A stretch of 64,000 nucleotides of DNA, taken from a bacterium. GTDB lineage: Bacteria > Zhuqueibacterota > QNDG01 > JAFGCO01. The notes under the pieces were generated by a model that was given only the letters and a program-made list of their open reading frames with translations, was not told where the DNA came from and searched no databases. Each line of letters opens with the position of its first letter. The stretch's first letter is position 1. The position numbers and the translations under genes were made by a program. The stretch is taken from the NCBI GenBank assembly GCA_016932575.1, contig JAFGCO010000011.1, positions 108,321 through 172,320 on the forward strand. The letters run 5' to 3'. Below are positions 38,498 to 60,823 of this stretch, piece by piece.

Positions 38498-38650
38498 TGC
38501 CTGACTGCCATCCGTAGATGCATTGTCTACAACAATAATTTCGGAAGGGATACCTTTTAGTGCCTTGACAATTGATTGAATCGCCTGCTCAAGATAGGAT
38601 TTAACATTGTAATTGACAATAATAACGGATATGTCATTGGAACGCGCGAT

Positions 38651-53676: not shown

Positions 53677-55020
53677 CTACCAGTTCAGAAGTACTGTATA
53701 AGTGAGCATTGTCTCTCCGCCCGCCGACACAGGCACATCAAACTCGGCCGTTTCAGCATCCTTCTTTTGGTGCTTTTTTGAGGCCCCGGTGATCTGCCAG
53801 TCCGTGCCAAACCGCTCGACGACAGTGATACTTACAGATTCTTTTTTGTGGTTTTTTATAACAATCTCCACAGATTCCTGGCGGGAACGCTGTGATATTT
53901 TTCTGCTCTCTTTTACGATCCGCTCACCGATGATATCAAAGGCATTGCCGATAAATAACCGGACCGTTTCGTCTTCGGGCGTATGATCGATCCTGTCTTC
54001 GCCGATAAATTCCAATGCCCCGTCAGTATCCGCCTGATACACACGGACCACGCCTTTGGGTAATGGTATGCCAAGGCCGTCAGCTTTGCTGTTTTTAAAC
54101 TCCAAATGAACACGAACCTTTTCACCATAACGACTGCCGTCATAGATATAAACTTTTTCAGTTTTTGTTGCCGTCGGGGGAAATAATGAAATTTGCTTGG
54201 TCTGATTGTCTTTGAGTGTACTTTTTCGCTGCAAGGTGTACAGGTGGTATTCAAAAAATGATTTTTCTTCGAACTGATGATCCTCTCCTTCGGCTGCACC
54301 CAGAATTTGCAATCTCTCATCGGATTTCAATCTTCTTTGCCGAATCACATTCACATCTCCGGCCACCAGCTTTAATTTTGCATTCTCATAGGTTGCCCCG
54401 GAACGATTATCAATCGATACCCATCCGCTTAAATCCAGACGCGAATTCCCTTCATTCAAAAGAGCCACATATTCAGCATGCCAGTTCATTCCCCTTGTTA
54501 AATAGCTGATTTCAGTTTTCTGTTCTTCAGGACCGTGATTGCGGACCTGCCATACCAGTGTGGGACGCGTAATTAATCCCCGCGGCAATCTGGGCAGATC
54601 AAAATGCTGGATCTGATCATGCTTCAGTATTTTAATGCCGCCGCTGTCATCCTGAATGACAATCTCTTGCGAGGCACTGAGAAGCATTCCTTGAAATAAA
54701 TCTCCCTTCTCTGTGACCAGACGAATATCCTGATCGGTGTATTTGGATAAAATTTTAGATCCGCTGACCAGGTCATATTCGTAATTCTGTTCTAAAATTT
54801 GAACTTTATCTGTTGCGGTAAGAGATTTGAAATGCACAGATGTCGGATCGATCTGCGAGGCAACATCCGTAAATGATACTTCTGAAATACCCTTGCTCAA
54901 CTCAAGGGACCGGACATCTTTCACCAATGCCTGATTTTGATTATACACTGTAATGGAAACGTTCTGAGAAAATAAACCGGACATTGACAGGGCCAGGCTA
55001 AAAACAATAATTTGTTTCAT
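53677..55020 (-). CDS. DUF4139-family secreted protein (mucoidy-inhibitor MuiA-like)
   Basis: 447 aa, signal peptide, N-terminal VSITVYNQNQALVKDVR block typical of the DUF4140/DUF4139 family. Confidence 0.6.
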   Translation of the reverse strand: MKQIIVFSLALSMSGLFSQNVSITVYNQNQALVKDVRSLELSKGISEVSFTDVASQIDPTSVHFKSLTATDKVQILEQNYEYDLVSGSKILSKYTDQDIRLVTEKGDLFQGMLLSASQEIVIQDDSGGIKILKHDQIQHFDLPRLPRGLITRPTLVWQVRNHGPEEQKTEISYLTRGMNWHAEYVALLNEGNSRLDLSGWVSIDNRSGATYENAKLKLVAGDVNVIRQRRLKSDERLQILGAAEGEDHQFEEKSFFEYHLYTLQRKSTLKDNQTKQISLFPPTATKTEKVYIYDGSRYGEKVRVHLEFKNSKADGLGIPLPKGVVRVYQADTDGALEFIGEDRIDHTPEDETVRLFIGNAFDIIGERIVKESRKISQRSRQESVEIVIKNHKKESVSITVVERFGTDWQITGASKKHQKKDAETAEFDVPVSAGGETMLTYTVLLNW

Positions 55021-58007: not shown

Positions 58008-58213
58008 GTATTTCTGTCTCCATATCAGGAATATTATTTTGCAAGGGTTGTAAAAGATACGGAAAATGCGGTTTATTGTCAATGACCAATAAAATCAGAT
58101 TCCTAACAAAATGAAATAATTATTTCATTTCGTTAACATTTGTAAAATGATTGTGAATCAGTGGGCGGTTATAAGAATTTATTATTATGGGAGTTATGAT
58201 ATTTTTTAAAAAA

Positions 58214-58230
58214 TTGGCACAATATCTGCA
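58214..58230 (+). promoter_or_regulatory. candidate sigma54-type promoter (TTGGCAC-N5-CTGCA)
   Basis: GG and GC dinucleotides spaced as in the -24/-12 consensus; intergenic; a sigma54 activator is encoded in the window. Confidence 0.25.
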
Positions 58231-58285
58231 TTTTCATCAGTCAGGAAAGCATAACCTCCTTTCCTCAATTTAACCCCTTGTGATC

Positions 58286-58324
58286 GGGTCCGTGTCCCCC
58301 CGCACGGACCCATTTTTTTTAAAA
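58286..58324 (+). terminator. intrinsic terminator-like hairpin (plus-strand orientation)
   Basis: GGGTCCGTG-loop-CACGGACCC followed by ATTTTTTTT. Confidence 0.55.
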
Positions 58325-58396
58325 TCAGAGACCGTTATCCGATCTTAAATTCATTCCATTTTTGAGACTGTTGAAAAATCATTCTAAACATTATTC

Positions 58397-58461
58397 TTAG
58401 CCTCCCGGAGGTTGAATATTTCCAATAGGCAATTTTGCTTATATAACCTCCAGGAGGCTAA
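58397..58461. repeat. REP-like inverted doublet TTAGCCTCCCGGAGGTT / AACCTCCAGGAGGCTAA
   Basis: Two 17-bp near-palindromic units in opposite orientation separated by 31 bp; same motif class as 2711-2745. Confidence 0.5.
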
Positions 58462-58768
58462 ATTTACAACTTTTTCGACAGTCTCGTTATGTTTTATAAG
58501 AAATAATCACCTTCATCGAATTCATCATCATAATGCCACAACTCCAATTTTATCCTGAATAATTCAAAATTTTCTTGCTCTCGTTCTTCGGCTAATTTCT
58601 CAATAATTTTTAAATCTGTTTCTCTTCTCATATTAATGCTTTCTTTACAATATAAGTCTTGGCTAACTGGATTAAAATAAAACGATAGCCTTAAGAAAGA
58701 ACAATTCCACCAAACTTAAATCAATGAGAAATCGTATGCATATATTTTCTGTTGAATTTGTTAATATA

Positions 58769-59077
58769 TCAAATCGCTTCTGAATATACTTTAACTTCGT
58801 CTTCAAGTTTATCACCCAATTTATCTAACTCCACTTCTAAATCGTAATGTGATTGCAGATTAGTCCAAAATTGCGGTGAAATATTGAAGAAGCGACCTAG
58901 TCTTAAAGCCGTATCCGCACTGAAAGATCGTTTACAGTGTACTATCTCATTTATACGTCGAGGGGGAACATTTATATCTTTTGATAATCTGTATTGTGAG
59001 ATCCCCATCGCATCCAGAAATTCTTCCTTTAATATTTCCCCGGGGTGTATGGGTGGTATCTTATTTTCTTTAATCAT
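58769..59077 (-). CDS. higA: HigA-family antitoxin (XRE-type HTH)
   Basis: 102 aa; IHPGEILKEEFLDAMGISQYRLSKDINVPPRRINEIV...SADTALRLGRFFNISPQFWTNLQSHYDL. Confidence 0.8.
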   Translation of the reverse strand: MIKENKIPPIHPGEILKEEFLDAMGISQYRLSKDINVPPRRINEIVHCKRSFSADTALRLGRFFNISPQFWTNLQSHYDLEVELDKLGDKLEDEVKVYSEAI

Positions 59078-59256
59078 TTATAATCTCCTAATGGTAACGA
59101 TTTCAACATTATATGCATTTCCACCCTTCCCCTGTCATTCCGGTAGTGTTTTGAGCCGGAATCCACCTTTACCCTGTTGGATATTTTTATTTATCCAACA
59201 GGGTGAACCTTGAACCTGAAGAATATGCCCTGTGAAATAATGAATCAAACCATTTC
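59078..59256 (-). pseudogene. decayed higB toxin remnant
   Basis: Frame ending directly at higA start encodes ...GKGGNAYNVEIVTIRRL (compare HigB C-terminus GNAYDVEIVDYH) but is closed by an in-frame TGA (59135-59137) 18 codons upstream; upstream sequence is frame-broken. Confidence 0.35.
59171..59204. repeat. perfect 13-bp-stem palindrome ACCCTGTTGGATA-N8-TATCCAACAGGGT
   Basis: Direct reading; lies inside the higB remnant. Confidence 0.6.
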
Positions 59257-59426
59257 CTATTTTGGACAAGAGTGATTTCGTGTAATATTTTTAATTTTAG
59301 TCATCTCATTTTTAGAGGGTGTTTTTGTTTTAATATTTCCTTTATCATACTCCTCTAAAACATATTTCTCTTCTTTATTCAGTTTCATGGCTTTTTTCAA
59401 TTTCTTTAAGAAAATCTCTTGCATTC

Positions 59427-60644
59427 TCAATTAAGTTGTTTTTTAATATTCACGTGAACCGCAATAAATGCAAGCGGATGCAAAATGCCCATTAAGACAA
59501 AAATCGGAACATATCCAAAGTAAGTTACAATATATCCTGGAGCCATTGTTGCTATTAAAAGTCCGCCTAAACCTCCTGCAAATCCGCCCAGCCCAGTGAC
59601 CGACCCTACAGCTTTTGACGGGAAGCAGTCAGCCACGAGGGTGAAAATATTGGCAGACCAGCTGCTATGAGCGCCAAGGGCCAGACCAACCAGTAGAATC
59701 GCCGCCCAGGGATTGCCGGCAATGACAGCAAAAGCGGTTACAGGAAGACAGGCGGCAGAAATCCCCATAATTAATTTTCTGGCTTTTATCACAGGGCAGC
59801 CCCGTTTTACCAGATAACCGGAAAACCATCCCCCGACCCAGCTGAGCAGGATGGCGATAATATAAATGATTGGCACGGCAATGGCGATGGATTTTATATC
59901 AAATCCGCGTTGAGAAGACAGGTAGTTAGGCATCCAGTATAGATAAAACCACCAGACAGGATCTGTCAGAAATTTTCCGATCATAAAACCATAGGTTTCC
60001 CTCTGCTTCAGGAGCAATTTCCAGGGAACCGTTTGTTCTTCATTTTTTTCCGCCTGCCGATCCATTTTTTCTTTTGGTGTCTGATAGACAAATTGCCAGA
60101 TGATAACAAGTAAGAAACCCAGCAATCCAAAAAAGAAGAATGTCCAGCGCCAGCCTGCGACTGTAAAAATAATTGCCATTAAGGGAGGCCCGACGATCGA
60201 AGCCACACTGGGTCCGCTATTGAAAAGAGATGTGGCAAAAGCCCTGTCTTTAACGTTAAACCATTCAGAAACAGATTTGATTGCAGCAGGAAAGTTGCCT
60301 GCCTCAGTAAGACCCAGGAAACCACGCCAGACACTCATGCATAAGGGTGTTCTGCAAATTGCATGCATTGAAGCACTGATGGACCAGGTCAGAATGGAAA
60401 GCAAATATCCCAGTTTGGTGCCCAGCCTGTCAATAATTCGTCCGGCTGCCAGAAATCCCAGCATATACATTAATTGAAAAGCGCTTAAAATATGACTATA
60501 GGCAATGTCATCAATATCCAGGTCATTTTTAATTTCAGGAATTAATACAGACAGGACAATACGGTTAAAATAATTGAAAGTTGTTGCAGAAAACACGAGG
60601 GACAGAATCACCCAGCGGTATTTGTTCAAATATTTTTTTTGCAT
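59427..60644 (-). CDS. MFS transporter (hexuronate/ACS-family-like)
   Basis: 12 TM helices, MFS signature; start moved to ATG 60644 (M16) preceded by AAGGAAGG. Confidence 0.85.
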   Translation of the reverse strand: MQKKYLNKYRWVILSLVFSATTFNYFNRIVLSVLIPEIKNDLDIDDIAYSHILSAFQLMYMLGFLAAGRIIDRLGTKLGYLLSILTWSISASMHAICRTPLCMSVWRGFLGLTEAGNFPAAIKSVSEWFNVKDRAFATSLFNSGPSVASIVGPPLMAIIFTVAGWRWTFFFFGLLGFLLVIIWQFVYQTPKEKMDRQAEKNEEQTVPWKLLLKQRETYGFMIGKFLTDPVWWFYLYWMPNYLSSQRGFDIKSIAIAVPIIYIIAILLSWVGGWFSGYLVKRGCPVIKARKLIMGISAACLPVTAFAVIAGNPWAAILLVGLALGAHSSWSANIFTLVADCFPSKAVGSVTGLGGFAGGLGGLLIATMAPGYIVTYFGYVPIFVLMGILHPLAFIAVHVNIKKQLN

Positions 60645-60823
60645 CCAGCCTTCCTTGGTATGTGTTGGTGGATTCACTCTGAGTTTCAAAACACAGGACG
60701 TGGACCTCGCCCCGGAAATGTAAATCCGGAGCGGGTGAATCTGAACAGCGAGCGAATATAAATTATTTTTACTTTACAGATGAAGATTCCCCGTGGCAAG
60801 CCACGGGGTGCTTCAATTCAGGG

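Follow-up and report, generated by a model that had tools for sequence, protein, structure and literature searches.

An intact higA antitoxin gene that has no toxin gene to serve raises two questions, namely, how the toxin was lost and why the antitoxin is still present. In the window, i.e., the whole 64-kb stretch of DNA analyzed here, such a gene lies on the minus strand downstream of a gene on the same strand that encodes an MFS transporter (59427 to 60689; PF07690 MFS_1, E = 9.8e-57). The original prediction described it as an orphan higA next to a decayed higB toxin gene, and this headline holds, since the 3' end of higB was detected and the rest of it is absent. The approximately 350 bp between the transporter gene and higA very probably represents the remains of two type II toxin-antitoxin cassettes once arranged in tandem, of which higA alone is still intact.

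The higA gene (58769 to 59077, minus strand), identified by family models and alignment with its homologues, is an intact gene with its own ribosome-binding site and encodes a protein of 102 amino acids. HigA scores 101.4 bits with the NCBIfam model TIGR02607 (HigA family addiction module antitoxin; cutoff of 47.7) and 27.6 bits with Pfam PF01381 HTH_3 (cutoff of 23), which places it by curated cutoffs in the HigA family of XRE-HTH antitoxins. Its best database homologues share 83% to 88% identity with it and come from uncultured bacteria, e.g., candidate division KSB1, Calditrichaceae, and Chitinivibrionales. In an alignment of 85 homologues, HigA keeps all 30 invariant and all 27 near-invariant columns and departs from the majority residue at only 16 positions, most of which are variable. 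The nearest solved structure is 3TRB from Coxiella (E = 1.6e-24), and other close structures include 6JPI/7CSV (HigA of P. aeruginosa), 6F8S (GraA of P. putida), and 4MCX (HigBA of P. vulgaris). The ribosome-binding site, AGGAG (59085 to 59089, minus strand), was read directly from the sequence 7 nt 5' of the ATG, as had been proposed for this gene. The ancestral stop codon of higB, TAG (59090 to 59088), shares bases with this site, and the resulting TAGGAG junction also occurs in intact relatives in the multiple alignment.

To characterize the DNA upstream, relatives of higA were collected at 38 related loci from genomes, with more from assemblies. A HigB protein HMM was built from 15 intact HigB proteins of these relatives, such as that of locus L039 (PF05015, 67.7 bits), and a DNA profile was built from the 3'-terminal 63 nt of 16 related higB genes, with the intergenic region and higA left out. 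The frame ending at the higA start, QGKGGNAYNVEIVTIRRL, comprises 18 codons (59134 to 59081) bounded by an in-frame TGA (59137 to 59135) and a TAA (59080 to 59078), in line with the 18 codons and the in-frame stop of the original prediction. This fragment ranked first among the 3,615 six-frame fragments of the window with the protein HMM, at an E value of 1.6 that is not significant alone. The DNA profile matched positions 59131 to 59089 of the minus strand (nhmmer; E = 1.3e-6, 24.5 bits, with a 4-nt gap), and its second-best match in the 64 kb had an E value of 0.75. The HigB-like C terminus that had been recognized in this frame is thus real, and significant HigB similarity is present directly beside higA. 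When compared with intact higBA loci, the higB 3' end of the window aligns base for base (window GGAAATGCATATAATGTTGAAATCGTT----ACCATTAGGAG versus L039 GGAAATGCATTTGAAGTCGAAATTGTTGATTATCATTAGGAG), except that a 4-bp deletion near 59096 (GTT[GATT]ACCATTAG) removes the conserved DYH-stop ending, so that the frame now closes with TIRRL-stop.

According to the DNA profile and the alignment, the higB pseudogene stub (59088 to 59134, minus strand) corresponds to approximately the last 16 codons of the 93-codon HigB. Within the HigB domain (PF05015, approximately 91 positions), only model positions 78 to 93 remain, and these carry the 4-bp deletion. Farther 5' than about 59134, the protein HMM, the DNA profile, and the alignment revealed no higB similarity in any frame; the protein HMM detected no HigB-like sequence elsewhere in the six frames of the 64-kb window, and Pfam gave no match on the frames upstream of higA. 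The locus has no intact toxin gene; a 16-codon stub, with no full higB, now stands directly 5' of higA. About 77 of the 93 higB codons and the higB promoter are missing, and since most of the gene and its promoter are simply absent, the sequence indicates that the toxin was lost by deletion and not by a frameshift, insertion, or duplication within higB. The locus resembles known HigBA type II systems in its antitoxin family, its toxin-first gene order, and its toxin-antitoxin junction (..VEIVDYH-stop-GGAG..ATG), which is that of intact relatives. Ancestrally, higA was clearly placed behind higB, and it is an orphan today. The locus differs from known HigBA systems in retaining just 16 toxin codons, in having lost the autoregulated promoter-operator, and in no longer forming a working pair.

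A common promoter is found at intact higBA loci from many phyla and consists of TTGACA, then TAACG-N5-CGTTA, and then a -10 element. A near-identical form lies approximately 60 to 20 nt 5' of higB in loci L001 to L013, L039, and L040, with TAACGCTTGACA, TAACG-N5-CGTTA, and TATTAT in order. Since HigA-family antitoxins are known for autoregulation, HigA presumably uses this palindrome, located between the -35 and -10 elements, as its operator. In the 64-kb window, TAACG-N5-CGTTA has a single one-mismatch match, located far off at 54128, versus 0.75 expected. A separate one-mismatch match to the higBA promoter at 38613 to 38627 was dismissed, as it comes without the operator palindrome. Judging from these searches, the shared autoregulated promoter upstream of the toxin is not present at the locus. 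From the transporter gene to higA, a consensus scan of the minus strand called neither a sigma-70-like promoter nor a terminator. By eye, a possible weak promoter can be discerned inside the stub (59108 to 59138, minus strand), consisting of ATGACA (59138 to 59133), a 19-nt spacer, and TATAAT (59113 to 59108), which the scan did not call because the spacer exceeds 18 nt. Transcription might also read through into higA from the transporter gene. The G+C content of the islet from 58083 to 59426 is 29% to 37%, in comparison with 41% to 49% in the flanking genes, and no tRNA gene was found in the window.

What lies between the higB stub and the transporter gene was read differently in the original prediction, which saw there a frame-broken continuation of higB; that is, the whole of 59078 to 59400 would be a toxin gene inactivated by an insertion or duplication around a palindrome. 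The C-terminal stub is truly higB, and RKGQYSIRI in HigB looks weakly similar by eye to GKGGFRLKT in the window. However, both profiles are empty past about 59134, and the DNA beyond that point matches two other sequences. The first match concerns positions 59421 to 59268, which share 84% DNA identity with positions 367 to 519 of contig L042 (154-nt alignment, E = 1e-40). L042 encodes an 88-amino-acid antitoxin, P0121, and a 97-amino-acid toxin gene overlapping that of the antitoxin. The toxin matches PF04365 (BrnT) at an E value of 2.5e-5, below the curated cutoff, and P0121 matches PF12441 (CopG_antitoxin) and NF047399 (BrnA) weakly, also below the curated cutoffs. P0121 is the single database relative of the 57-amino-acid ORF at 59257 to 59430 (79% protein identity, E = 9.9e-9).

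On the basis of the L042 alignment, the segment adjoining the transporter gene (59375 to 59421, minus strand) contains the 3' end of a BrnT-like toxin gene, approximately 12 codons long (ARDFLKEIEKSHETE-stop), beginning 5 nt past the stop codon of the transporter gene. After it comes a CopG/BrnA-like antitoxin gene, of which the first 38 codons are present (59268 to 59388, minus strand) and which appears from P0121 and L042 to be cut at approximately 59276 to 59268 by a repeat resembling a miniature inverted-repeat transposable element (MITE). The similarity to L042 stops abruptly at this junction (approximately 59268 to 59276). Like BrnT/BrnA systems (PF04365 with PF14384/PF12441), L042 combines a BrnT-like toxin with an overlapping ribbon-helix-helix antitoxin of the CopG/BrnA type. 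In contrast to them, all of its family matches are below the curated cutoffs, which indicates a distant relative of BrnT/BrnA, and the window holds stubs only.

The second match concerns the repeat itself. Positions 59276 to 59155 share 88.5% identity over 122 nt with positions 493 to 614 of L049 (E of about 2e-40), an unrelated metagenome contig in which the segment has a glycosyltransferase gene as its neighbor and toxin-antitoxin genes are absent from the vicinity. In L049, the element (493 to 700) runs 86 bp further, and its far end repeats its start in inverted orientation. When reverse complemented, L049 positions 676 to 700 match the left end of the window copy (59276 to 59252) at 22 of 25 positions, and the two ends of the L049 element match each other at 17 of 25, a level at which, or above which, matches occur approximately 1.7 times per shuffled 64 kb. 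Based on L049, the window therefore appears to carry the first 122 bp (59155 to 59276, minus strand) of a MITE-like repeat of approximately 208 bp with 25-bp terminal inverted repeats (ATCAYTSYTGTCCAAAATAGGAAAT), with its left inverted end at 59276 to 59252 and its right part and right end missing. In the L049 copy, inverted ends bound a short noncoding element, as in a MITE.

With these two matches and the higB 3'-end profile, the reading of 59078 to 59400 as a frame-broken higB is refuted and retains almost no probability. The duplication of the GKGG-coding segment that had been proposed in its support does not stand up either. It consists of a direct repeat of 14 of 16 nt (59120 to 59135 and 59162 to 59177), a level equaled in 9 of 100 shuffles of the region. 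One of the copies lies within the repeat element and is conserved in L049, the other corresponds in the alignment to the higB codons for W-x-x-G, and the similarity is treated here as chance microhomology. The suggestion that an insertion or duplication inactivated the toxin is right in that a MITE-like insertion exists, but this insertion interrupts the CopG/BrnA-like antitoxin gene, not higB, and the duplication is without statistical support. Similarly, the perfect palindrome with a 13-bp stem (59171 to 59204) is present at the coordinates given, but it belongs to the separate repeat rather than to the HigB remnant.

Another origin of the 122-bp segment has to be considered, namely, that it represents the 3' end of the CopG-like antitoxin gene in diverged form, followed by a downstream hairpin, with the TAA in the loop as the natural stop codon. 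The frame-0 peptide GLIHYFTGHIL resembles GMIHRYVEGDL in P0121 and also the CopG protein of L040, and 17 of 23 nt match between the window (CTGTTGGATAAATAAAAATATCC) and the antitoxin stop region of L042 (E = 0.96). However, the L042 DNA matches in the 122-bp part are not significant, and L049 has the same 122 bp without the antitoxin N terminus or a nearby toxin-antitoxin gene, in a copy bounded by the inverted 25 nt described above. GLIHYFTGHIL was dropped as a CopG-like antitoxin C terminus on account of L049, and this origin of the segment is considered improbable.

The palindrome itself, found by a sequence scan, forms a perfect hairpin internal to the repeat, with arms at 59171 to 59183 and 59192 to 59204 and an 8-nt loop. 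It occurs once in the window, and L049 carries the identical 13-bp stem at 565 to 598. HigA proteins bind palindromes, and a hairpin so stable, with its stem exactly conserved in two copies, might be a functional site, either a new operator of HigA or a terminator insulating higA from the transporter gene. Its sequence, however, is unrelated to the TAACG-N5-CGTTA of intact relatives, no T-run follows it on either strand, the terminator scan made no call, and it is part of a repeat that is also present without higA in L049. A functional role is therefore very improbable. Of the seven loci retrieved when metagenomes were scanned for the palindrome, L049 alone is homologous, and the other six are unrelated chance palindromes.

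In total, two copies of the repeat were found, in two unrelated contexts, and one of them is truncated. No further copies were detected in the window, the fetched loci, plasmids, or viral contigs. No clear target-site duplication flanks the L049 copy, the window copy is without a right end, and no parent insertion sequence was identified. The repeat had no Rfam match at gathering thresholds; matches at E values up to 1 (an enteroviral 3' untranslated region element, GAIT, and a plant microRNA) were attributed to chance. It resembles bacterial MITEs in its size of approximately 208 bp, lack of coding capacity, 25-bp inverted ends, internal stable hairpin, and unrelated contexts, and differs from them in having two copies only, with neither a target-site duplication nor a parent insertion sequence identified. 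Because it is known from one truncated copy and one other, and a target-site duplication was not identified, its mobility can only be inferred, and it may be regarded as a minor candidate for a new MITE-like repeat family. The 44-amino-acid ORF overlapping the repeat (59135 to 59269) had no word-sharing match as a protein query, and phmmer with this ORF against 1.8 billion representatives returned repetitive chance matches only, one of which was a translated CRISPR-like array. Pfam and NCBIfam gave no match for the upstream frames and small ORFs. The approximately 20 nt between the truncated repeat and the higB stub (59154 to 59135) can form a 7-bp stem with the repeat (59137 to 59143 with 59156 to 59162), which is not significant by itself.

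The arrangement of these remnants suggests the following history. One ancestral cassette would have consisted of a BrnT-like toxin and a CopG/BrnA-like antitoxin and the other of higB and higA. A MITE-like repeat may have inserted into the CopG-like antitoxin gene, and a later deletion, extending from within the repeat to approximately codon 77 of higB, would have removed most of higB, together with the higBA promoter-operator and what remained of the CopG-like antitoxin gene. The truncation of the BrnT-like toxin gene and the 4-bp deletion in the higB stub were probably separate events. The ancestral adjacency of the two cassettes and the order of events are inferences from the sequence; an exact-sequence look-up of HigA found no syntenic relative. 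Close HigA relatives at L039 and L040 are flanked by dense toxin-antitoxin arrays (BrnT/BrnA, Gp49/HTH_37, PIN, PemK, and DUF4160/DUF2442), which fits the islet of the window being a former tandem array.

The region 3' of higA (58083 to 58790) showed no similarity to any fetched locus and contains several features of its own. A 32-nt palindrome at 58104 to 58135 (TAACAAAATGAAATAA/TTATTTCATTTCGTTA; 94% self-complementary) lies in the region upstream of valS and overlaps a minus-strand promoter-like site, and it may be an operator. On the plus strand, a strong terminator-like hairpin at 58286 to 58320 (GGGTCCGTG..CACGGACCC) is followed by T8; no obvious plus-strand gene lies 5' of it and it has no Rfam match, and it may end a small RNA or short ORF located in 58150 to 58285. 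A long hairpin at 58397 to 58461, located in the low-G+C spacer and unique in the window, has 22-nt arms that are 86% complementary (TTAGCCTCCCGGAGGTT... / ...AACCTCCAGGAGGCTAA) and a 21-nt loop. Searches of Pfam, NCBIfam, PADLOC, and PHROGs yielded nothing for a 45-amino-acid acidic ORF (MRRETDLKIIEKLAEEREQENFELFRIKLELWHYDDEFDEGDYFL) on the minus strand at 58494 to 58631, which could be either a spurious ORF or one more remnant; in PADLOC and PHROGs, the same was true of the small ORFs 3' of higA as a group.

To place the locus among its relatives, the 450 nt 5' of higA was surveyed with the HigB HMM at 40 related loci. The toxin gene was full length at 25 loci, truncated or frameshifted at 6 (L015, L017, L018, L020, L028, and L040), without a trace at 7, and cut by the contig end at 2, which indicates that higA is an orphan in about a third of the evaluable relatives. 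At L015, L017, and L018, C-terminal higB stubs (model positions 74 to 93 or 85 to 93) lie beside an intact higA. At L020, an N-terminal HigB fragment is fused to the C terminus, and in a KSB1 genome (L040/L041), higB has lost 1 nt in an A-run.

Whether HigA is now a leftover or is kept by selection is the second question. No toxin remains, so the locus is unable to act as an addiction or growth-arrest module. The higA gene would still be translatable from its own AGGAG site, with transcription probably provided by read-through from the transporter gene or by the weak promoter in the stub, and HigA could still serve as a free HTH repressor or as a neutralizer of HigB toxins made elsewhere. Selection might therefore maintain HigA as a stand-alone factor, conferring anti-addiction or immunity against a plasmid, phage, or paralogous HigB, or as a domesticated HTH repressor. 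All 57 invariant or near-invariant positions are kept, the ribosome-binding site has been retained despite several surrounding deletions, the recurrence of higB 3' stubs at L015, L017, and L018 fits selection for higA expression signals, and an anti-addiction role of orphan antitoxins has been discussed previously (PMC7354431). The pairwise dN/dS of the window higA versus its nearest relatives, 0.07 to 0.10, would also agree with selection and is within the range of intact pairs, but with dS saturated, this ratio would fail to reveal any recent relaxation of constraint. No sign of decay is apparent in higA, and recent toxin loss would account for this, as for the low dN/dS, just as well as continued selection for a function. 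Further points against a selected HigA are that no HigB-like gene lies within the 64 kb and that the match to TAACG-N5-CGTTA in the window is not beyond chance.

An intact antitoxin is also predicted by neutral decay. A toxin must go before its antitoxin, and an intact antitoxin beside a dead toxin is consequently an expected intermediate stage. HigA is most likely a leftover, and its neutral persistence is the preferred reading, with a selected stand-alone HigA as an unlikely alternative. The more specific idea that HigA is actively maintained as an anti-addiction factor or rewired regulator, with recurrent stubs persisting in several lineages because they carry what would express higA after loss of the shared promoter, namely, the ribosome-binding site and a cryptic -10 element in the A-Y-N-V codons, is a little less likely again.

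The neutral reading agrees with a review according to which orphan antitoxins are mostly degraded former pairs (PMC7354431). Like the orphan antitoxins of Klebsiella, Mycobacterium, and Acinetobacter discussed there, the window contains an intact antitoxin beside toxin debris, for which the same roles have been proposed, i.e., relic, regulator, or anti-addiction factor. There is no difference in principle, and the debris of two cassettes and a repeat can here be mapped to the base. For annotation, higA is fittingly described as an orphan antitoxin beside a higB pseudogene, and the ORFs of 57 (59257 to 59430) and 44 (59135 to 59269) amino acids, being either chimeric or spurious, do not merit gene calls. 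Should HigA prove to be retained for an anti-addiction role, the locus would provide one more example for a debated idea. The locus is a fresh instance of a well-known kind of genomic decay, in which the erosion of a toxin-antitoxin islet can be followed base by base, with the toxins probably going first, through deletion and the insertion of a mobile repeat, and the antitoxin surviving.
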